Shown here piece after piece: positions 25,654-36,474 of a DNA stretch of 63,216 bases. Both the position numbers and the translations under genes were made by a program. The stretch's first letter is position 1; each line of letters begins with the position of its first letter. The notes under the pieces are model-generated. The model was given only the letters and a program-made list of their open reading frames with translations, searched no databases and was not told the DNA's origin. This DNA comes from Bacteroidota bacterium (GTDB taxonomy: Bacteria; Bacteroidota; Ignavibacteria; SZUA-365), in contig JAMIQH010000153.1 in NCBI GenBank assembly GCA_035914695.1, forward strand, positions 1 through 63,216. Direction: 5' to 3'.

Positions 25654-25680
25654 TCACTGTGTGAGTCCATCCGTGTGAAT

Positions 25681-25855
25681 ATCACAGTGCGAACGGCAGG
25701 GTTTTAAAACCACAGATTGCACAGATTTCACACAGATTAGCACGGATGGATCGTGGAAGGCTGCGGGGATCGGAGCGATACATAACAGCCGGGGAGAAAT
25801 CGCACGCTCGTTGTCGACAATCCAGCGTCTTATGCACCCTTGCGTCTTCGCGTTG
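25681..25855. repeat. dispersed intergenic repeat, family CACAGAT (copy R1)
   Basis: gttttaaaaccacagattgcacagatttcacacagattagcacggatggatcgtggaagg...gcgtcttatgcacccttgcgtc. Colinear with copies at 27385-27530 and 36205-36403. Confidence 0.85.
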
Positions 25856-25866
25856 TTCCCGCGCGA

Positions 25867-26568
25867 TCAACCGCGCAACACTTTCTTGTATTTCAGGAAA
25901 TAGCGCTTGAGGATATTCACAAGCGGCCGGGCCAGGCCAAGGGGTTGCAACACCACCATGCTCGCATGAAAGATGATGCCTGAGAGTGTTCTCAGCGTGG
26001 ACTCCGCGGGTTTGGGTGCGGTATCAATGTGCACATACATAATGGTCCAGTAGCTACCCTTTATGATGTGTTTCTCGCCCCAGTTGTATCGATCGAAAAA
26101 GTTGCTCGTGATATAGGTTTGATGAATTTCCAGCGGATTGCCGTAGGTTTCCTCCTGGAAAATATCATGAAGTGGACAAATGATAATGATGTGTTTGAAG
26201 GTGCGATGACACTGCTGTATTACCGCGTGGATATCGGAGGGCTTCAAATGTTCCAGAACGTCGCCGAAGATTGCCACATCATACATCTGCGCGTTCTTGC
26301 GCACCCAGTCCTGAAGCAGCGCATGGTGCACTTCATCATACGGGCCTTCATTGCGGAGCATGTTGGCTGTGTTTTCCGAGCCCTCCACGGCCACGAGACG
26401 GACGTCGCTTTGAAGCAGCTCCCGTGCTATTCTCCCGTTTTTCCCGCCTCCGGCGCCAAAATCGACGATGCGAGCAGGCCGCAATGCCTCAAGTTGCTGA
26501 GCGAGAATGTAGTCGCAATACGACACACTGCTTCCGAATTGCTGTTCCACGGTATCCTGGTCTGACAT
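25867..26568 (-). CDS. class I SAM-dependent methyltransferase
   Basis: ORF 233 aa. IVDFGAGGGKNG (motif I) and VAIFGDVLEHLKP. Visibly lower GC than the surrounding core genes. Confidence 0.75.
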   Translation of the reverse strand: MSDQDTVEQQFGSSVSYCDYILAQQLEALRPARIVDFGAGGGKNGRIARELLQSDVRLVAVEGSENTANMLRNEGPYDEVHHALLQDWVRKNAQMYDVAIFGDVLEHLKPSDIHAVIQQCHRTFKHIIIICPLHDIFQEETYGNPLEIHQTYITSNFFDRYNWGEKHIIKGSYWTIMYVHIDTAPKPAESTLRTLSGIIFHASMVVLQPLGLARPLVNILKRYFLKYKKVLRG

Positions 26569-26704: not shown

Positions 26705-26847
26705 CTTGTCCGCATACTATTGGCGAATCGGGTAATATTGTGCGCAATATATCGCTTCCTTTGCAGGGGAGCAAACAGAGCATCAAGACATAGTTTCAAA
26801 ACCACAGATAGCACAGATATCACACAGATTAGCACAGATGGATCGTG
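26705..26847. repeat. 143-bp direct repeat, left copy (contains a CACAGAT module; copy R2)
   Basis: cttgtccgcatactattggcgaatcgggtaatattgtgcgcaatatatcgcttc...gtttcaaaaccacagatagcacagatatcacacagattagcacagatggatcgtg. Near-identical to 36120-36262. Confidence 0.9.
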
Positions 26848-26892
26848 GAAATCCACGATGATCCGATGAAGAAGCCACGAAGTGTCCTTGTG

Positions 26893-27324
26893 TTACGCCA
26901 CCGAGGTCGAGCCATAGCGCCGCAGCGCCTCTGTGGCCGCCAGAGAGATGAGCGCTTCGAGGACATGGACGTCGATGTCTGCGAGGCGCTTGAAGTAGAG
27001 GCAGGACTTGCTCATCTTGTGCTTTCCGAGCGTGGACAGGAGTTCCGCTTGTCCGGGATCGTCCACGCCGAGGTAGACCACGAGTTCCCTGCCGCGGATG
27101 GCGAAAGCCGCGAGTGGCGCCTCGCCCGAGTGTCCGCTCGCATATCTGTAGGTGTAGGAGCCGAAGCCCACGATGCTCGGTCCCCACATGTGCGGCTGTT
27201 GTCCCGTCACACGCTCGCATATCGTCATGATGGTTCTGCAATCCTCGATTTGCCCGGCGGTGCCTCTTGCCGCGAGGTACTCCTCGACACTCGCGCCGGT
27301 GGGTTGGGTTTTTGGAGTTGGCAT
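26893..27324 (-). CDS. DUF1801 (YdhG-like) domain protein
   Basis: ORF 143 aa. GASVEEYLAA...MWGPSIVGFGSYTYRYASGHSGEAPLAAFAIRGRELVVYL is the typical DUF1801 pattern. Confidence 0.75.
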   Translation of the reverse strand: MPTPKTQPTGASVEEYLAARGTAGQIEDCRTIMTICERVTGQQPHMWGPSIVGFGSYTYRYASGHSGEAPLAAFAIRGRELVVYLGVDDPGQAELLSTLGKHKMSKSCLYFKRLADIDVHVLEALISLAATEALRRYGSTSVA

Positions 27325-27384: not shown

Positions 27385-27530
27385 GTTTCAAAACCAGGGT
27401 GCGAACAATGTAGTTTCAAAACCACAGTGCGAACAATGTAGTTTCAAAACCACAGATAGCACAGATATCACACAGATTAGCACAGATGGATCGTGGAAGG
27501 GTGCGGGGAGCGGAGCGAATACCTGTCTCT
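27385..27530. repeat. dispersed intergenic repeat, family CACAGAT (copy R3), with internal 28-bp duplication
   Basis: gtttcaaaacc starts at 27385, 27413 and 27441. The last is followed by cacagatagcacagatatcacacagattagcacagatggatcgtggaagggtgcgggg, as in R1. Confidence 0.85.
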
Positions 27531-27561: not shown

Positions 27562-30500
27562 TTACACCGCTCCGCCCACACCTTTGAATTTCTCCACGAA
27601 TGCGGTGATTTTCTGGAAGACGGTCTGCTTCGTGATCAAGTATTGCGGGTTCAGCGGGCTCATGCGGGGCAGGATGGCGTTGAGTTCGGTGCCGCTGTCG
27701 CTCGCGAATTCGCGTTTTAATGAGGCGGTGATATAGCGCCTGGCAGCTTCCGCATTCAGGTTCTCGGCGGTGATCAACTCTTGCGCTTCCCGCTGCTGTT
27801 CGGCCCGGGCAAAGGTGAAAAAGGCATCAATCACACTGGCCTTGTCGCCAATGTTATCGAGATCGGTCTGGTTGATGAAATCGACGAGCAGGCTTTCCTT
27901 GGCTCGGTTGCCAAGACTGGCGCGAATGACGCGTCGTACTTCGTCAACCAGCCCCGACTTGGTCCTGATGTTCTTGTTGTGCTCGAAGATCAGTTCCAAT
28001 ATGTAGTCGAGATTGATTTCCTGAGACTTCAGGAGGTCGACCTCGAATACCACGTCATCCCAGTCGATGCTGGATGTATCCTTGTCATCGGAGGATTTCT
28101 GGCGGCGCAGCCATTCGCGCACGTCGTTGTAGGTGGAGCGGTAATCCTGGATGATTCGTTCCGACGGTATCGTTATCGCCTGCAGTTCGGCAAGGTCTTC
28201 ATCGCTCAGATAATGCTGCGTCTTGAATGCCTCCACCGCCGCAGGGTCGTTCATGTCAACGCTTTGAAGTGCTTTCAGACTGGCAAATTCATCGAAATGC
28301 TGTAGCACATTCTCGATGCGTAAATATTCTCCGAAGAGCTTCACAAACGCCTTCTTGTCCGCTTCCTTCTCGATGGCGGTGGGATCGGGAAAGCGCTGCT
28401 CCAACTCCCGCACCACATCCATATAACCGCGCCGCGCTTCACCGGTCAGTACATCGGTAAAGCCGTCCATGTATTCCTTGTAGCTCTTCTCCAGCACCAC
28501 GTTCTTTGTGTTCCTGTCGCCAAACAATGTGATGGCGTCGATGGTGGCTTGCTCGAGGTCACGGAAGGTGACGATGTTGCCAAAGGTTTTCGTGGCGTCA
28601 AAAATGCGGTTGGTGCGCGAATATGCCTGCAGAAGGCCGTGGTAACGCAGGTTTTTGTCGACGAACAAGGTGTTCAGCGCCGGCGCATCAAAGCCGGTCA
28701 GGAACATGCCCACCACGATCAGCAGGTCGATTTCCTTGGCCTTCACCTGCTTGGCGAGATCACGGTAGTAATTCTGGAAGCCGTTGCTGTCCACGCTGAA
28801 ATTGGTTTTGAACAGCGTGTTGTAATCCGCTATGGCCGCGCTCAAGAACTCCTTGGCGCTGCTGTCCATGGCGGAGACTTCGAAACTTTCGTCCTGTATG
28901 TCGCCGACAGCATCCTGTTCCTCGTTCGCGGCAAACGAGAAGATGGTGGCTACCTTCAACGGCTTGTCGCTGCCCTTCTGCAATTCCCGGAAGGACTCGT
29001 AGTACAGCTTGGCGGCGTCGACGCTGCTGACCGCGAACATGGCATTGAACCCTTGATTACCAGCCTGGAGGCGGCGTGTTTTCTGTCGATAGTGTTTCAG
29101 GATGTACTGTGTGATTTCGCGTATGCGGTCGGGGTGCAACAGCGCCTGCTTGTTTTCCGCCGCGCTGAGCGTTTTCTCGTTGGACTCGCTCTCAATCGCC
29201 TTGAACTGTGGACGTACATCGTTGTAGTCCACCTTGAACTTCAGCACCTTCTCATCGCGTATGGCGTCGGTGATCACGTAGGAATGAAGTTCGTTGCCAA
29301 ACACGCTGGCTGTGGTTTCGGCGCCCAACGCGTTCTGCGGGAAAATGGGTGTACCGGTGAAGCCGAACTGATAGAACTTCTTGAACTTCTTTTTGAGGTT
29401 TCTCTGCGCTTCGCCAAACTGGCTGCGGTGACATTCATCAAAAATGAACACCACCTGCTTGCCGTAAATGGGCAGATCGCCTTCGCTCTTCATCAGGTTG
29501 TTGAGCTTCTGGATGGTGGTGACGATGATCTTGTTGTCGTCCTTGTCCAGATTGCGCTTGAGACCGGCGGTGCTGTCCGAACCATTGACGCTGTCCGGTG
29601 AGAATCGCTGGTATTCCTTCATGGTTTGGTAATCAAGATCCTTGCGGTCGACCACGAAAAACACTTTGTCGATGAAGTCCAGCTCGGTGGCCACACGCGC
29701 CGCCTTGAAGCTGGTCAGGGTTTTGCCCGAACCGGTGGTGTGCCAGATATAACCGCCGCTTTCCGTTTTGCTCCAGTTTTTCGTCTGCCATGCGCTGTTG
29801 ATTTTCCACAGAATGCGCTCGGTGGCGGCAATCTGATAGGGACGCATGACCAACAGGGTGTTGCTGACATCGAATACCGAATAGTGCAGCAGTACGCTGA
29901 GCAGCGTCCTTTTCTGGAAAAAGGTGGCGGTGAAGTCCTTCAGGTCCTTGATCAGCGAGTTATCCGATTTCGCCCAATTCATGGTGAAGTCGAAGCTGTT
30001 CTTGCCGCGCTGCGTGGTGTTGGCGAAATACCGACTGTCGGTGCCGTTGGAGATCACGAACAGTTGCAGATACTTGAACAGGGAATGCTCGCTGTTGAAG
30101 CTCTCCTTGCTGTAGCGATGCACCTGATTGAAGGCCTCACGAATCGCCACGCCGCGTTTTTTCAGTTCCACCTGCACAAGAGGCAGACCGTTGACAAGAA
30201 TCGTCACGTCGTAGCGATTGGCGTGGCTGCCCGTCTGCTCGAACTGCTTGATCACCTGCAGCCGGTTTCGGGCAATGTTCTTCTTGTCCAGCAGATAGAT
30301 GTTCTGTATATGGCCATCGTCAAAGACAAAGTCGTGAATGTAATCGTCGTGAATCTTGCGGGTTTTTTCCACGATGCCATCACTGGGCTTGTCCAGCCAG
30401 GTTTCCACAAAGCGCAGCCACTCGCCGTCGGAGAATTGCATCTTGTTCAGCGTCTGCAACGCGTTGCGCACATTGGCCAGCAACTTTTCCGGCGTGTTGA

Positions 30501-30660
30501 GGTCGGGCGCGTATTCGTAGCCCTGATTCTTCAAGTCCTGAATGAACTCCCGCTCCAGATCCGATTCGCTCTGGTAACGCTCGTTGGCTTTCCATTCCCT
30601 GACGTATTTGTCCAGGACAATGAAGTGTTTCGATTCGGCAATGGCCTTGTAGTCGCTCAT
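27562..30660 (-). CDS. hsdR: type I restriction endonuclease subunit R
   Basis: ORF 1032 aa. HTTGSGKT Walker A and [13 protein letters not shown] box. N-terminal nuclease-region and C-terminal sequences are typical of HsdR. Confidence 0.95.
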
Positions 30661-30760: not shown

Positions 30761-31111
30761 TCATGCAGTCGGCATTCGGCGGATTGAGCCGTAATCCAAC
30801 GGGATCACCGCGTCCAGGTTGTAGTACTTGACCTGCTGGGTCTGGGTGAGGCCTACCACGGCGCCGTGCTCAGTGCTTGTTTCCAAAATGGAAACAACCA
30901 CTTCTTCCACCAATTCGCCACTGTCGAAGATGTTCTTCAGATGCCTGGAAATGGCCGGGACGCCCACACCAAACAACTCCGCCATGCGCTTTTGGGTCAG
31001 CCAGATGCTCTCATTGCTGAGCAGGACTTCGACTTTGACTGCGCCGTTGGGCGCGGTGTGGAGCAGGAATTCGGTGCTTTGATCGCGTAATGTGATATTT
31101 GGTCGGGGCAT
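30761..31111 (-). pseudogene. rhuM-family (virulence protein RhuM-like) gene remnant, frameshifted and truncated
   Basis: MPRPNITLRDQSTEFLLHTAPNGAVKVEVLLSNESIWLTQKRMAELFGVGVPAISRHLKNIF...KYYNLDAVI matches the N-terminal third of RhuM-type proteins, which are usually about 330 aa. Near 30803 the expected ISVGYRLN continues in another frame (..VGLRLNP..) and stops. Only about 100 bp remain before hsdR. Confidence 0.65.
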
Positions 31112-31305
31112 AGTTCGATCCCTCAATTTTGAGTATCCAGGGATTGTTTCCCCATAGGTGTGGTACTGGTAGTTGCTAGATTCAACTGATTGGTGACATG
31201 AACTATTTCACTCTCGTCTTGCTTCAGATTGTCTCAAATATCCATGTTTCTGGGTAGGAATGATCGTCAATGCACATTGACTCAAATTGCGGGAGTATGG
31301 CGTAA

Positions 31306-32538
31306 TCATCCAGTTATTACTTCCGGTTGCCTGAAATGATAGGTCTTGATCAAATGGTCTACCAATTCGCTTAGTCTAGCTTTGTCATTGTCCTCGATTT
31401 CAGCCATTTCTTCGCCTGCATGGGCTGAGTGACTGGATAGGTTTAGGAGTCTGTTTCCAAATGGGTCAGGGTTCCCATTGCTGGTTTGTGGAAGAAGAGC
31501 CGACCAGTTGTTGTAGCCTAGGAACGTAGCCATCTTCTCCAAAATGTTTCGTGTGAAATTAAAATGGTACTTCCTGATTTGCCCATTATTAAGTGCAACT
31601 TGGAGTTCGGATAAGAGAAACAGGTGGTACGAGAATGGCGAGTCGGTTGGCTGTGTTGCCAGATTAAACAGACCGTCTTCATTTTTTTCTAATCGATATT
31701 TCTGAAAAGCTTTTTTTGGGCTATATGTCTTCGTCCGTGTGCCATCCTTCTGTGTTTTGTAGGCCGGGTTGCTAAACTCGTTGCAGAGGATATTGTAAAA
31801 AAGCGGGCTGTGTGTTGTGATTACAAAATTAAGCTTGGAATTGCTCGACTTAACCAGCGTCGCCAGGTCGATGGCTAGGTCAATTAAATGATTGTCGTCG
31901 AGCGAACTAACGGGGTCGTCAATAAACACGTATTCTAGAAGATCAAAGTCGTTGCTTCCGTGTTCATTCTTGTCGGATTCCTCAAGAACAGACACCACCT
32001 CTTGAATAAGTGTAAAAAAAATGCTCCATATAAAACTCCTCTCCTCGCTTTTAGATACTTTTAAATTGCCTGTTCGTTCAGTGCCAGTGTCAAGAGAGAA
32101 AATTACTTCCGGGTAGGTTTTTTCACCTGTCCTCTTCGTACCTACAACTACATCTTTCTCTTGAAATCGTGCAGATAGTTTGTCGTTTGTATAACGCTGA
32201 AATGTGTTAACGATATCTATTTCGCCGCGTACACGCAAAATCCAGTCAGTGAATGAATTCGGTTGGATTTTTAATTTTGGCTCGATGTCTTGCTCCAAGT
32301 CGTTATCCCAGTAGAACAAGTCTTCGGTAAATGCGTTGTAATAGAGGATGATGTTGCGTGACGACTGGGGAAGATCGGCTGCTTCATCGCCTTCTCCACT
32401 ATCGGCTTTGGAGGCTATCAGTCGCTTGAACTCTCGTGAGAGACGAGTTTTTCCCACGCCATTGAAGGCGTAGATTATCTGCACTTTCTTGTTGGCATCT
32501 TTTAGCTGTTGTGCGATTTCCGGTAGCGTCTTGCCCAT
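31306..32538 (-). CDS. AAA_13-type ABC-like ATPase, PrrC-like anticodon nuclease candidate
   Basis: ORF 410 aa. Walker A AFNGVGKT, signature-like VSKSEER, Walker B/D-loop YVFIDDPVSSLD and H-loop ITTHS. The C-terminal region has RNILE (RxxxE) and SSHS about 36 residues later. The gene sits between hsdS and hsdR as prrC does in E. coli and starts 1 nt after the hsdS stop. It is the most AT-rich gene in the window. Confidence 0.65.
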   Translation of the reverse strand: MGKTLPEIAQQLKDANKKVQIIYAFNGVGKTRLSREFKRLIASKADSGEGDEAADLPQSSRNIILYYNAFTEDLFYWDNDLEQDIEPKLKIQPNSFTDWILRVRGEIDIVNTFQRYTNDKLSARFQEKDVVVGTKRTGEKTYPEVIFSLDTGTERTGNLKVSKSEERSFIWSIFFTLIQEVVSVLEESDKNEHGSNDFDLLEYVFIDDPVSSLDDNHLIDLAIDLATLVKSSNSKLNFVITTHSPLFYNILCNEFSNPAYKTQKDGTRTKTYSPKKAFQKYRLEKNEDGLFNLATQPTDSPFSYHLFLLSELQVALNNGQIRKYHFNFTRNILEKMATFLGYNNWSALLPQTSNGNPDPFGNRLLNLSSHSAHAGEEMAEIEDNDKARLSELVDHLIKTYHFRQPEVITG

Positions 32539-32539
32539 G

Positions 32540-33787
32540 TTATGTCGTCTCCTCTTCAGGTTTTGGGAAGTTGAACAGCATATCGCGGTAATACTCGTAT
32601 TGCTTTTTGCGCAGTGCGATTTCGCGGGGCAAGCCCTCGGTGAGGGAGTTGGTCAGAGCGTCGAACGTGTCGAGTATGGCGACGATGCGGGCTTGTTCGG
32701 CGAGGGATTTCTGAGGGTCATAGGCATATGGAATCGGGAGCTTGAAGCTCTTTATGATGCTTGAGTTGAGGTCGCCTCTGGGACCCTGTCCTAGTGACTT
32801 AATGTTTTCATAATTAAAACTCACCCAATGAAAAACATAGCGAGATAACGCCTTGGCGCTGTCTACTTCCAGGCAGCCACAGTGCTGATTGGTTGTTAAA
32901 GGAATTTTATTGATCGCTGACCTGCCTGCCGTGGCGCCAGAGATCGCAATTATTACGCAATTCGCAGGAATCCACTTTGCTGCCGACTGCTCCAGGGCTG
33001 CCTGAGTTATTTTTACTTCAGTTCTCTCGATATCGGAAAACTTGACCTCTTGTGTTCTTAGCCATGGAATATCGCCTCCTTCATAGTACTTCGGCTCTCC
33101 GGCTGTAGGGGTTCCGCCTGAATGCCATTTTTTTGTAACATCCCCCAGCGTTTTCCAGGCTACATCTCCTAATTCAAAACTCAACAACCGGTCGCGATAG
33201 TAATTGTATTGTTTTTTACGAGCGGTCAGCTCGGCGGTCAGCTCGGCGGTCAGCTCGGCGGTCAGCTCGGTAAAGGCGTCAAGAATGCGGACGATTTCGG
33301 CCTGGATTTCGAGGGATTTTTTGGGGTTCTCGGGGCAGGGGATGGGGATTCCAAACTTTTCGGTATCAGGGATTGCAATTTGCGGCATTTGCATCTTGCC
33401 GCCAATACTCTGGAAATGGGGTTCGTACAGTTTTAGAAAATGGTAAACATACTTGATATGGATAGCCTCGTTGCTTGAATGGTACGACCACATTTCATTC
33501 TTGTGTGAGAACGGTATGTCGCAATATTCAAATTCAATTACGCCACGAGATTTAACAATAATCGAAGCTTCGCAATTTATATCCTTGGCTGGTATGTCGT
33601 CGAAATCAACAAAGGCGACGGTTTTACCCCCCGCGAAGATTTTTACCGGAGCGCCATCTTTATGAAGCTCTTTCATCTGACCTGCGGTGATTTTTGTGCC
33701 TTTGGTTCGAACAAGCATCTCACCGAGTGGCTTCCATTGAACCTCGACCCCGTCCAACAGCTTCGCCAGAAAAGGAAGTTGACTCAC
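32540..33787 (-). CDS. hsdS: type I restriction-modification specificity subunit S (type IC-like)
   Basis: ORF 415 aa. Two TRDs separated by the central conserved region LDAFTELTAELTAELTAELTARKKQYNYYRDRLLSF. The C-terminal conserved region is LDTFDALTNSLTEGLPREIALRKKQYEYYRDMLFNF. GTG start lies 2 nt after the fic stop. Confidence 0.9.
   Translation of the reverse strand: MSQLPFLAKLLDGVEVQWKPLGEMLVRTKGTKITAGQMKELHKDGAPVKIFAGGKTVAFVDFDDIPAKDINCEASIIVKSRGVIEFEYCDIPFSHKNEMWSYHSSNEAIHIKYVYHFLKLYEPHFQSIGGKMQMPQIAIPDTEKFGIPIPCPENPKKSLEIQAEIVRILDAFTELTAELTAELTAELTARKKQYNYYRDRLLSFELGDVAWKTLGDVTKKWHSGGTPTAGEPKYYEGGDIPWLRTQEVKFSDIERTEVKITQAALEQSAAKWIPANCVIIAISGATAGRSAINKIPLTTNQHCGCLEVDSAKALSRYVFHWVSFNYENIKSLGQGPRGDLNSSIIKSFKLPIPYAYDPQKSLAEQARIVAILDTFDALTNSLTEGLPREIALRKKQYEYYRDMLFNFPKPEEETT
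33222..33269. repeat. 4 perfect tandem copies of the 12-bp unit gcggtcagctcg inside hsdS (encodes the TAEL/ELTA repeat)
   Basis: Directly visible at 33222-33233, 33234-33245, 33246-33257 and 33258-33269. Translated on the minus strand this gives ELTAELTAELTAELTA. Confidence 0.95.
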
Positions 33788-33789
33788 GG

Positions 33790-34395
33790 TTACAACTCCT
33801 CGGTCTTGAATTCGCTGTAGCCTTCGTAGAAATAACTCACGTCGATGCCTTTCATGAACAGGGCGCGGTCGTGGATGCGGTCGGTGAGGGCTTGCTTGAG
33901 CAGGAATTTGATTTCCAGGTCTTTCACCGGACTGCGCCGCATGGCGGAAAGATATTCCTCTTTATCGACGTGATTCCAGTCCACCACCTGCCTGAGTTCC
34001 TTTTTCAGCATGCAATCCAGCCAGATGCGGGTGGCCCGTCCGTTGCCTTCGCGGAAAGGATGGGCGACATTCATTTCCACATATTTTTCCACGATTTGCT
34101 CGAAGTTGCCTTGCGGCATGGCGTCGATATGTTTGAGCGAAGCGTGCAGATACATGACCGGGGCGAAGCGGAAATCACCTTTGGAGATATTCACGTCGCG
34201 GACAATTCCGGCGAAGTGGTAAATCTCGCCAAAAAGATAGGCATGGATGAACGCCAGCCCGGAAAATGTACCCACGTCCACCTTGTGGATGTCGCCCGAG
34301 TCGAAAAGCTGTCTGGCTTTTTGCTTGCTGATTCTTTCCTCGGCCTTGGCCAGCGCGATCTGCTCCGTGATGTTGAGCTTGTTTTCCGGAATCAT
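33790..34395 (-). CDS. fic: Fic-domain protein (AMP-transferase type), class III-like with C-terminal inhibitory motif
   Basis: ORF 201 aa. [12 protein letters not shown] is the canonical Fic motif HxFx(D/E)GNGRxxR. The C-terminal SYFYEG fits the inhibitory (S/T)xxxE(G/N) motif. Its ATG overlaps the hsdM stop (ATGA). Confidence 0.9.
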
Positions 34396-35942
34396 GTGGA
34401 CGCTCCTTCAATCTCGGCTACGATGGCGTCGATTTCCGCGCGCAGCTTGTCGATGTTGGCGACGGTGGTTTTCAGTTCGGCATTCAGTTGGGCAATGTCC
34501 ACGGTCTCACGGGTATCCCGGGCCTCCACATAGCTGCTCACCGACAGATTGTAGTCGTTGGCGGCGATGGCCTCGAAAGGAATGGATTGAGCAAAGTGAT
34601 CCACGTTCGCCTTGCTGTCGAACACGGCGAGGATGCGTTCGATGTGCTCGTCCAGCAGCACATTATTGTTGGTTTCCTTCTTGAACAGACCGCTGGCGTC
34701 GATGAACTGCGTGGTGGTGTCGCTTTTATGTTTGGACAGCACAAGGATATTCACTGCGATGGTGGTGCCATAAAACAGATTGGACGCCAGGGAAATCACC
34801 GTTTCGATGTAGTTGTTGTCGATCAGATATTGGCGGATTTTCTGCTCGGCGCCTCCACGGTAGAAAATGCCGGGGAAGCAGACGATGGCCGCGCGGCCTT
34901 TGCCGGAAAGATAGTGGAGCGCATGCAGCACGAAGGCGAAATCGGCTTTGGATTTGGGCGCGAGCACACCCGCCGGGGCGAAGCGTTCGTCGTTGATCAG
35001 CGTCGGGTCGTCGCTGCCTATCCACTTCACCGAGTAGGGCGGATTGGACACGATGGCGTCGAAGGGTTTGTCCTCGGCGAAATGCGGCTCCGTCAGCGTG
35101 TTGCCCAACTGGATGTTGAATTTGTCGTAGTTGATGTTGTGCAAGAACATGTTCATCCGCGCCAGGTTGTAGGTGGTGTGGTTGATTTCTTGCCCGAAGA
35201 AGCCGTCATCAATCAGATGGTCGTCAAAATGCTTTTTGGCCTGCAGCAGCAAGGAGCCCGAGCCGCAGGCGGGGTCGTAAATCTTGTTGACACCGCTTTG
35301 CGTGTGCATGGCGAGTCGTGCGATCAGCTTGGACACATGCTGCGGCGTGAAGAATTCGCCGCCCGATTTGCCCGCGTTGGCGGCATAGTTGGAGATGAGG
35401 AACTCGTAGGCGTCGCCGAACAGATCGATGTGGCTCGACCCGAAGTCGCCGAAGTCCAGTTCGGCCACGCCTTTGAGCACGGCGGCCAGGCGGGTGTTCT
35501 TGTCCTTGACGGTATTGCCCAGGCGGTTGCTGGTGGTATCGAAGTCGGCGAACAGGCCTTTGATGTCCTGCTCCGACGGGTAGCCGTTGGCGGAAGCTTC
35601 GATGGCGGCGAAAATCGTTGCCAGGTCGGTGTTCAAGCGTTCGTTGCTGTTGGCGTTGGCAGCCACTCTGGCAAAGTGCTGGCTGGGATAGATGAAATAG
35701 CCCTTGGTCTTGATGGCATCATCTTTGATCTCCGGCGTGATGACATTGTCGGCCATCTGAGCATAGCGGATGTTTTCGTCACCGCATTCGAAATACTCCG
35801 CGAAGTTTTCGCTGATGAAGCGATAGAACAGCGCACCGAGCACGTATTGCTTGAAATCCCAGCCATCCACCGCACCGCGGACATCGTTGGCGATTTGCCA
35901 GATCCGGCGTTGCAATTCGGCTCGTTGTTGGCTGCTGGTCAC
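34392..35942 (-). CDS. hsdM: type I restriction-modification DNA methyltransferase subunit M
   Basis: ORF 34392..35972. [10 protein letters not shown] (motif I) and SNPPYS (motif IV) are present. Likely start is GTG at 35942 ([23 protein letters not shown]), with GAGGAGAA upstream; the TTG at 35972 is less likely. Confidence 0.95.
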
Positions 35943-36119
35943 GTGGTTTTCTCCTCGGGACGTGGGTACCAAAGGTACCCGGTTTTTCTATGAAATCAGA
36001 ACTCCCTCATCTCGCACGGGATTGATCCATCAACGGACGCTGGGTGTACGCCTACGCGCAGCAGGTTGCCGGGGTGAAGAGTTCCCACTGTCGCAGCTCC
36101 GCGCCTTGTCTCACTTCCG

Positions 36120-36262
36120 CTTGTCCGCATACTATTGGCGAATCGGGTAATATTGTGCGCAATATATCGCTTCGGCTGCAGGGGTGCAAGCAGAGTATCA
36201 AGATATAGTTTCAAAACCACAGATAGCACAGATATCACACAGATTAGCACAGATGGATCGTG
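36120..36262. repeat. 143-bp direct repeat, right copy (copy R4)
   Basis: Near-identical to 26705-26847, with a handful of substitutions, mostly in the segment cttc[ct]ttt/ggctgcagggg[at]gcaa[ag]cagag[ct]atcaaga[ct]at. Confidence 0.9.
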
Positions 36263-36403
36263 CAAGGCGGCGAGGTTCGGAGTGAATGGATAACGCTCGG
36301 GGGAGAGATCGCACGCACGCTGTCGACGATGTAGCGTCTTATGCATCCTTGCGCCTCTGCGTTATGCGCCCTTGCGTTATGCGCCCTTGCGTTATGCGAC
36401 CTA
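36263..36403. repeat. tail of repeat R4, including a 15-bp tandem repeat (gcgttatgcgccctt, about 3 copies)
   Basis: gatcgcacgcacgctgtcgacgatgtagcgtcttatgcatccttgcgcc parallels R1 (25795-25850). It is followed by gcgttatgcgcccttgcgttatgcgcccttgcgttatgcga at 36359-36400. A related pair, cccttgcgttacgcgcccttgcgttacg, is at 53460-53487. Confidence 0.85.
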
Positions 36404-36474
36404 GCGCTCTGCCTCCAAGGTCGAGTCGGAGCGCCGCATTGTATTCGTACAGGCAGGTTTCCGGCATGCCGCTG

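Follow-up and report, generated by a model that had tools for sequence, protein, structure and literature searches.

Fic AMP-transferases of class III carry a built-in inhibitor, a glutamate that prevents productive ATP binding (PMC6408439, PMC12894286, PMC8627216), and in NmFic of Neisseria meningitidis this is joined by the enzyme's own switch made up of oligomerisation and auto-AMPylation (PMC6408439, PMC12894286). The NmFic tetramer is inactive and the monomer becomes active after auto-AMPylation, with Y183 and Y188 as the modified sites and Y109 of GyrB as the target (PMC6408439, PMC12894286). In EfFic of Enterococcus faecalis R122 is salt-bridged to E190, and the exchange E190G raises AMPylation (PMC6408439). 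SoFic, which belongs to class II, is a validated single-gene anti-phage defence (10.1101/2022.05.11.491447, PMC12249575); it is toxic once de-repressed and abortive infection has been proposed for it (PMC12249575). Class III Fic are structurally among the best-understood AMPylases, yet their biological role is not agreed. Here we describe a gene for a Fic of this class, named fic in the following, which lies between hsdM and hsdS of a type I restriction-modification (R-M) operon. It was found in a stretch of 63,216 nucleotides from a Bacteroidota bacterium (contig JAMIQH010000153.1 of assembly GCA_035914695.1), which is called the window below.

Similar gene neighbourhoods have been described before. 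Anantharaman et al. (2013, PMC3710099) reported neighbourhoods of R-M genes with PrrC or RloC, Fic/Doc and RhuM and a 'three-level' R-M/HEPN/DOC defence. As in the window, a type I R-M system, an ABC-HEPN nuclease, a Fic/Doc toxin and a RhuM-like gene share one operon there, but the description was made at the level of superfamilies and neighbourhoods, with neither class III Fic nor the slot between M and S nor the ATGA coupling singled out and with no experiment. In Histophilus somni a map from 2011 has M, Fic, S, Abi and R adjacent to each other (PMC3339403). Furthermore, PDC-S04 is a phage-defence candidate of PADLOC that was obtained by an embedded-gene approach (Payne et al., 10.1101/2024.01.29.577857), such candidates being genes embedded in BREX, DISARM and type I R-M systems. 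No new kind of system is found here: structures are available for near-orthologues of the protein, and comparative-genomics papers have covered the layout from 2013 onwards. The remaining interest would be the biology of embedded class III Fic, and for its experimental study this compact operon of R-M, Fic and PrrC would be well suited.

The gene and its ribosome-binding site are placed as follows:

33790–34395, minus strand: fic, class III Fic AMP-transferase of the NmFic/EfFic type, 201 amino acids (aa), catalytic loop H112–R123, inhibitory residues S187, E191 and G192

34403–34407, minus strand: AGGAG Shine-Dalgarno sequence of fic, within the 3' end of hsdM and 7 nt before the ATG; the ATGA overlap is at 34392–34395

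In the translation of the open reading frame (ORF), residues 112–123 satisfy the FIC active-site motif HxFx(D/E)GNGRxxR, so that the loop is intact, as had been claimed in the initial annotation of this DNA. The C-terminal motif (S/T)xxxE(G/N) is present as S187-Y-F-Y-E191-G192 at residues 187–192 of 201, and on inspection of the sequence it is absent from residues 1–40. With E191 being 10 and G192 being 9 residues from the end, the distance of 13 residues originally given between motif and C-terminus was inexact. Fic is the sole Pfam domain of the protein (E=1e-11), and the NCBIfam equivalog NF046029 'ProtAdlyltaseNmFic' is matched over model positions 2–177 of 177 with 305.9 bits, the cutoff being 230. 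Using phmmer, the top PDB match was the Fic of E. faecalis (5nv5, E=8e-93), and NmFic was matched at about 5e-67. Only PDC-S04 and PDC-S72 were matched among the PADLOC models, and the assignment to PDC-S04 is based on this profile match, in which the protein fits model PDLC04842 end to end (E=1.4e-102, residues 1–200 against positions 1–200 of 202).

An AF2 model built from a diverse alignment reached a mean predicted local distance difference test (pLDDT) score of 96.6, whereas 35 near-identical homologues as input gave a pLDDT of 42 and an unusable model. Using Foldseek, the model was superposed on EfFic with a TM score of 0.98–0.99 and a root-mean-square deviation (rmsd) of 0.7 Å over 200 residues (5nv5) and on NmFic with an rmsd of 0.6–0.8 Å. 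The last helix, residues 177–190 in the model, is included in these superpositions on solved structures. As modelled, the protein shares its fold, catalytic loop and C-terminal inhibitory helix with EfFic and NmFic, and the inhibitory glutamate is predicted to reach the active-site arginine and the site of the ATP gamma-phosphate.

EfFic (5nv5, 6ep0 and others) is of equal length, consists likewise of a single domain and shows 67–70% identity over residues 4–201, including an identical catalytic loop and a shared C-terminal SY(Y/F)YEGY helix; its E190 and R122 correspond to E191 and R123 of the window Fic. NmFic (2g03, 3s6a, 5cgl, 5ckl) is about 57% identical and shorter than the window Fic by an N-terminal extension of roughly 20 residues and by the final 7 residues, but its catalytic histidine, inhibitory serine and glutamate, auto-AMPylated tyrosines and tetramer-interface glutamates are all kept. 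In the alignment H107 of NmFic corresponds to H112, E186 to E191, Y183 to Y188 and Y188 to Y193, and the interface residues E102 and E156, which are those named in PDB entries titled 'E102R/E156R in dimeric form', are E107 and E161 here. Across 81 sequences H112, R120, R123, S187, E191, G192 and E107 are conserved without exception, and Y188 (79/81), Y193 (80/81) and E161 (77/81) are near-invariant. Compared to SoFic only the Fic AMPylase fold and an inhibitory glutamate helix are shared: SoFic, at about 370 aa, has its inhibitory helix at the N-terminus, a further domain at the C-terminus and AS1 as a small partner downstream (PMC12249575), whereas the window Fic with its 201 aa and its C-terminal inhibitory helix does not have this architecture. 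Class I Fic, class II Fic and Doc were also considered as its identity and are ruled out by architecture. We regard the assignment as a class III Fic AMP-transferase, orthologous to NmFic and EfFic, as solid, and the self-inhibited enzyme of the NmFic type that had first been proposed is supported by NF046029, the PDB matches and the superposition of the model alike.

What differs from the solved enzymes is the genomic setting. EfFic was studied as an isolated enzyme, with no known target, and in the two Enterococcus plasmid copies that we inspected the gene stands alone among insertion sequence (IS), recombinase and resistance genes, outside hsd operons. NmFic is encoded on its own small genomic island, outside type I loci (PMC8627216). 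In the window the ATG of fic (34395–34393) shares bases with the TGA of hsdM (34394–34392) in the sequence ATGA, and the TAA of fic (33792–33790) is followed by CC and then by the GTG of hsdS (33787–33785). Both junctions, the overlap with the hsdM stop and the hsdS start 2 nt past the fic stop, could thus be read in the sequence just as initially described, and they bear out the tight coupling of fic between hsdM and hsdS. Through the ATGA overlap fic is read together with hsdM, and a separate Shine-Dalgarno sequence serves fic itself. As hsdM overlaps fic by 4 nt and hsdS starts 2 nt downstream, there is no space for an antitoxin ORF. A scan of the operon for promoters and terminators gave counts no better than those of shuffled sequence, and hence no sign either way on an internal fic promoter.

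To place this arrangement we made use of a scan with one genome per species, which gave 575 relatives from which the nearest 80 (70–95% identity, many phyla) were kept. Context was called by tblastn with the Hsd and PrrC proteins of the window and by Pfam scans of the flanking ORFs, counting type I genes up to 8 kb away; the 52 of the 80 loci in which each flank of fic reaches 2 kb or more are referred to as well-flanked. Type I R-M genes lie beside Fic in 35 of the 80 loci and in 26 of the 52 well-flanked ones. The association of Fic with type I loci is real, recurrent and far above random expectation, and the phylogenetic unlinking from type I loci, which the initial annotation had named as grounds for giving up its idea, is not what we observe. 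Among the 22 related loci that have HsdM upstream, 16 show the same junction of AGGAG, seven nucleotides and a 4-nt ATGA overlap, and in several loci hsdS begins 1–2 nt after fic. No contextual clue to the role of class III Fic is stronger than this recurrent lodging in type I operons at a junction kept nucleotide by nucleotide. The order is not entirely fixed, as one locus (L070) has M-S-Fic-R, and in some loci a RhuM-like gene or a YhcG/DUF1016 nuclease occupies the same slot as additional cargo. A Cetobacterium plasmid shows M-Fic-S-…-AAA ATPase-R in its RefSeq annotation. A PADLOC scan of the downstream neighbours returned mostly redundant specificity-subunit models. The partner HsdM proteins range from 70–93% identity down to 52–55%, or 25–39% if not directly adjacent, at a Fic identity of 74–95%, and with Fic at a steady 78–80% the partner HsdM can fall from 86% to 52–55%. 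The closest relative, L001, comes from a metagenome-assembled genome labelled Bacteroidota. Its HsdM, Fic and HsdR are 93–95% identical to those of the window, but identity falls to 45% for HsdS and PrrC is absent, which shows a recent exchange of the segment from S to R. The label is unexpected for an island that in the window lies within a genome of 61–70% GC.

The other half of the well-flanked close homologues (26 of 52) has no type I genes. These free-standing copies are 72–85% identical to the window Fic, about the same as the embedded ones, and both kinds are interleaved throughout a neighbour-joining tree. In three loci (L063, L065, L068) fic directly follows an ORF of 434–435 aa, with an overlap of 4 nt in L063 and L065 and of a single nucleotide in L068. 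The family counts, which come without locus identities, include three matches to RsmB/F, a 16S rRNA methyltransferase, and probably these are the ORFs in question; fic would then be coupled in this way to genes other than hsdM as well. The family also occurs in 977 plasmid records (797 from Enterococcus, 100 from Lactococcus), mostly on mobilisable or conjugative plasmids. Four records were inspected, from Enterococcus, Bacillus and Lactococcus, and there fic stands alone next to IS (IS1216), recombinase, replication, partition, mobilisation or resistance genes. As a side observation, these plasmid neighbours raise the possibility of a plasmid-maintenance role. A low-stringency DNA search of complete E. 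coli genomes gave no match, and among phage genomes only three weak or unannotated records were matched, so that the family is not phage-borne.

Fusions were looked for in the ten longest of 150 listed cluster representatives, the search having given 3,737 matches overall. Three N-terminal partners of class III Fic were found, an RloB-like domain (P0239, 370 aa), Bro-N (P0154, 293 aa) and an XRE-type helix-turn-helix (P0123, 267 aa); fusions of HsdM or HsdS to Fic were absent from these ten. When residues were ranked by how well they split R-M-embedded from free-standing Fic, position 168 came out on top with p≈0.003 against label shuffles, a value that ignores phylogeny. The clearest context signal, at positions 75 and 79, is due to a single subclade to which the window copy does not belong. 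In this subclade residues 74–79 of the target-docking flap are changed from G(N/D)FRFAP to GT(T/I)AFAR (L014, L027, L028, L034, L036, L047, L055, L061 and L064) or to GNTGFAR (L072). All of its members with a resolved context are R-M-associated, often with a YhcG/DUF1016 nuclease downstream. The window Fic has the canonical flap (FRFAP) and stands outside this TAFAR subclade. Copies from Marinomonas (L046, L051, L060) have a 5-residue insertion in the flap. An altered flap or an insertion in it could mean a different target.

The operon hosting fic runs in the order hsdM-fic-hsdS-prrC-(RhuM fragment)-hsdR, with all genes on the minus strand:

34392–35972, minus strand: hsdM, type I R-M methyltransferase (Pfam N6_Mtase, E=7e-118, and HsdM_N; TIGR00497, 643 bits)

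32540–33787, minus strand: hsdS, type I specificity subunit with two target-recognition domains (two Pfam Methylase_S matches; PADLOC Specificity_I, E=4e-122)

31306–32538, minus strand: prrC, homologue of the PrrC-type ABC-ATPase/HEPN anticodon nuclease, 410 aa (PADLOC PrrC, E=2e-131; Pfam AAA_13)

30761–31126, minus strand: RhuM-like N-terminal fragment, 121 aa, between prrC and hsdR (PADLOC PDC-S05 models)

27562–30660, minus strand: hsdR of the EcoR124 (type IC) kind (Pfam HSDR_N, SWI2_SNF2, T1R_D3-like and EcoR124_C; TIGR00348, 692 bits)

The C-terminal domain of HsdR is EcoR124_C (PF12008, E=7e-70), and this EcoR124-type end together with HsdM and HsdS in the operon lets us classify the host as a type IC (EcoR124-like) R-M system. 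The TTG start listed for hsdM is probably about 10 codons too early, since homologues align from about residue 11 in tblastn. The prrC gene, which is absent from the initial annotation, begins with an ATG (32538) 1 nt past the hsdS stop. Its product has intact NTPase (Walker A, DDPVSSLD, TTHS) and HEPN-type motifs, which the homologues of L009, L019 and L034 share; Walker A FNGxGKTRLS, YVFIDDPVSSLD, TTHS and RNxxEK…SHS are invariant in four PrrC homologues. A PDB sequence search with the PrrC homologue gave no match. Judged by these motifs, a genuine PrrC homologue sits in the same operon as fic. The PDC-S05 models (length 330–346) match the RhuM-like ORF over their first 95–100 positions or so only, and no Pfam match was obtained for it. 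RhuM-family ORFs are full-length at this position in related loci, with about 330–345 aa, and the 121-aa ORF is probably the truncated remnant of a third embedded cargo gene. The whole locus is a low-GC island with 43–57% guanine plus cytosine against 61–70% in the flanks; the minimum lies over prrC and hsdS, the prrC segment being lowest of all at 43–45%.

On balance we lean towards reading the Fic as an autonomous, self-inhibited enzyme of the toxin type that is carried as accessory cargo between hsdM and hsdS and acts as the abortive, protein-targeting arm of a layered defence island. The cassette recurs at the same junction in type I operons of many phyla, beside PrrC, RhuM and YhcG-like nucleases. 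The junction between M and S would serve as a landing site at which Fic borrows the transcription and translation of hsdM. By comparison with the solved homologues, Glu191 of the last helix would pair with Arg123 and block productive ATP binding, and control would most likely be intrinsic to the protein, through auto-AMPylation of Tyr188 and Tyr193, tetramerisation via Glu107 and Glu161 and possibly a metal switch. The same homologues suggest that HsdM and HsdS are not the controllers. Once de-repressed, Fic would by homology AMPylate a target of the GyrB/ParE type and halt DNA replication and growth. In such a layered island R-M would hit incoming DNA, PrrC would hit tRNA and Fic would hit a host protein as an abortive back-up, which is the very 'three-level' scheme put forward by Anantharaman et al. 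(PMC3710099). A protein-targeting back-up arm is favoured because of PrrC and the RhuM remnant in this operon, the nucleases found at other loci, the RloB-Fic fusion and the defence activity of SoFic. With R-M, PrrC and Fic in one coupled operon, the locus is also a compact test bed for the question whether toxins embedded in this way provide a layered back-up immunity, and the same operon could be used to probe whether concentration control as in NmFic matters physiologically.

Several points weigh against this reading. We know of no experiment that has shown anti-phage activity for a class III Fic. In the sole reported test, deletion of the PDC-S04 gene in E. coli NILS69 revealed no defence, PDC-S04 having candidate status only and the deleted gene possibly belonging to a different PDC-S04 sub-model (PMC12409345). 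EfFic works as a deAMPylase in the presence of Ca2+, which amounts to metal control, and its physiological target is not known (PMC6408439), so that a regulatory instead of a toxic role is possible, and NmFic has been interpreted as a regulator of growth or cell division (PMC8627216). For many homologues the neighbours are rsmB, uvrA or metabolic genes and no defence context can be recognised, and the rate of embedding among the 80 loci is probably inflated as they are the nearest relatives of an embedded copy.

The initial annotation had drawn a different conclusion from the coupling, namely that the R-M complex restrains Fic, or that Fic senses whether the complex is intact, in analogy to PrrC. 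Fic would then be latent through binding to HsdM and HsdS, perhaps also HsdR, and would be freed by an anti-restriction protein or by breakdown of the complex. The gene is indeed embedded and translationally coupled, so that Fic is made alongside the methyltransferase core, and PrrC in EcoprrI is a precedent (PMC3710099; 10.1101/2024.01.29.577857), being a toxic enzyme encoded within a type IC hsd operon just as Fic is here. The all-R-M TAFAR subclade also hints at specialised embedded lineages, albeit without the window copy as a member. PrrC, however, depends on R-M for its latency and is almost exclusively R-M-embedded (10.1101/2024.01.29.577857), whereas the Fic family is half free-standing and self-inhibited. 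Of the features expected from a PrrC-type masked toxin, fic shows the location inside a type I hsd operon, but a near-exclusive tie to type I loci is not seen in its family: the well-flanked homologues without type I genes within 8 kb (26/52) are interleaved in the tree with the embedded ones, and among the 977 plasmid records the four inspected, all from Firmicutes, have Fic standing alone. The protein also has its own inhibitor and every residue of NmFic self-regulation, HsdM partners of 52–55% identity beside Fic of 78–80% fit poorly to a co-evolved interface, and none of the ten longest among the 150 listed representatives joined M or S to Fic. Moreover, a real PrrC already occupies the guard position of the same operon, which weakens the analogy for Fic and leaves the role filled. 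With free-standing copies interleaved, an inhibitor of its own and no such fusions among those ten representatives, the idea of masking by the R-M complex is unsupported, and we rank it last, as the least likely of the three rival explanations.

Another explanation turns on dosage. As NmFic activity is concentration-dependent and antagonised by tetramers (PMC6408439, PMC12894286), in agreement with the 'dimeric' E102R/E156R mutants in the PDB, whose equivalents E107 and E161 are conserved here, the Fic could be an addiction module that needs no antitoxin: the tetramer would be inert during expression, and loss or silencing of the operon, island or plasmid would lead to dilution and to active monomers which auto-AMPylate, poison gyrase and arrest the cells now lacking the locus, thereby stabilising the R-M island. 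Co-translation with hsdM links the dose of Fic to expression of the operon, and the family is very common on plasmids, most of the 977 records being mobilisable or conjugative and the four inspected ones having it beside replication, partition, mobilisation and IS genes. Plasmid location does not discriminate, though, because defence genes are likewise enriched on plasmids; EfFic has no clear functional tetramer, its oligomeric state differing among crystal forms (PMC6408439), and post-segregational killing has been reported for no class III Fic. We consider this explanation unlikely. The same holds for a related form in which the embedded Fic is a dose-sensing guard that stays an inert tetramer only as long as it is co-translated with HsdM. 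An operon that is silenced, lost with its island or plasmid, or shut off by a phage, together with dilution, is a conceivable, if rather improbable, trigger, after which monomers would auto-AMPylate and poison gyrase or topoisomerase IV. If true, this would provide the addiction or abortive back-up that type I systems otherwise lack. Finally, Fic might be a passive hitch-hiker at a permissive M/S junction, selfish or neutral, or a housekeeping enzyme that tunes gyrase or another protein by reversible AMPylation and deAMPylation. The cargo in the two operon slots does vary, with Fic, YhcG/DUF1016, RhuM and PrrC in differing combinations, and between the window and L001, where M, Fic and R are 93–95% identical, S (45%) and the presence of PrrC differ. 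Many homologues adjoin housekeeping genes, EfFic is bifunctional (PMC6408439) and the only defence test of PDC-S04 was negative (PMC12409345). Against mere hitch-hiking stand an enrichment at type I loci that far exceeds random expectation, the exactly conserved junction architecture, the existence of RloB and Bro-N fusions and a co-cargo that is consistently defence- or toxin-like, and we give it little credit in comparison with Fic as a self-inhibited back-up arm.

Two tandem repeats and a dispersed direct-repeat element were also found in and around the operon:

33222–33270: perfect 12-bp tandem repeat, 4.1 copies (Tandem Repeats Finder), in central hsdS, encoding TAEL repeats (…TELTAELTAELTAELTAR…)

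27385–27518, plus strand: direct-repeat element, left copy flanking the hsd operon, with the 28-mer array and CACAGAT 9-mer arrays

36120–36363, plus strand: direct-repeat element, right copy upstream of hsdM

25673–25854 and 26705–26870, plus strand: direct-repeat element, further copies

36350–36406: 15-bp tandem repeat (TGCGCCCTTGCGTTA, 3.8 copies), upstream of hsdM

The TAEL repeats of hsdS, which also fit the type IC assignment, resemble those of EcoR124I and EcoR124II. In these two systems a changed copy number of the TAEL-type repeat shifts the spacer of the recognition site, and the tandem repeat in hsdS could be a slippage-driven specificity switch.

The direct-repeat element has 60–190 nt and consists of arrays of CACAGAT(A/T)G 9-mers and a 28-mer. 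A search of the window gave five matches where 0.05 are expected by chance, and copies occur only around the low-GC island. They bound three minus-strand units, a methyltransferase-like gene (25867–26568), a DUF1801 gene (26893–27324) and the entire hsd operon. No integrase, tRNA gene or inverted repeat was seen near the direct repeats, and a tRNA scan of the window found none, which leaves no tRNA-linked integration site. The direct repeats may be att-like scars of islands added in tandem. In L001 a single copy of the element is located just past hsdR, and in the window the 15-bp tandem repeat upstream of hsdM lies beside the right-hand copy.

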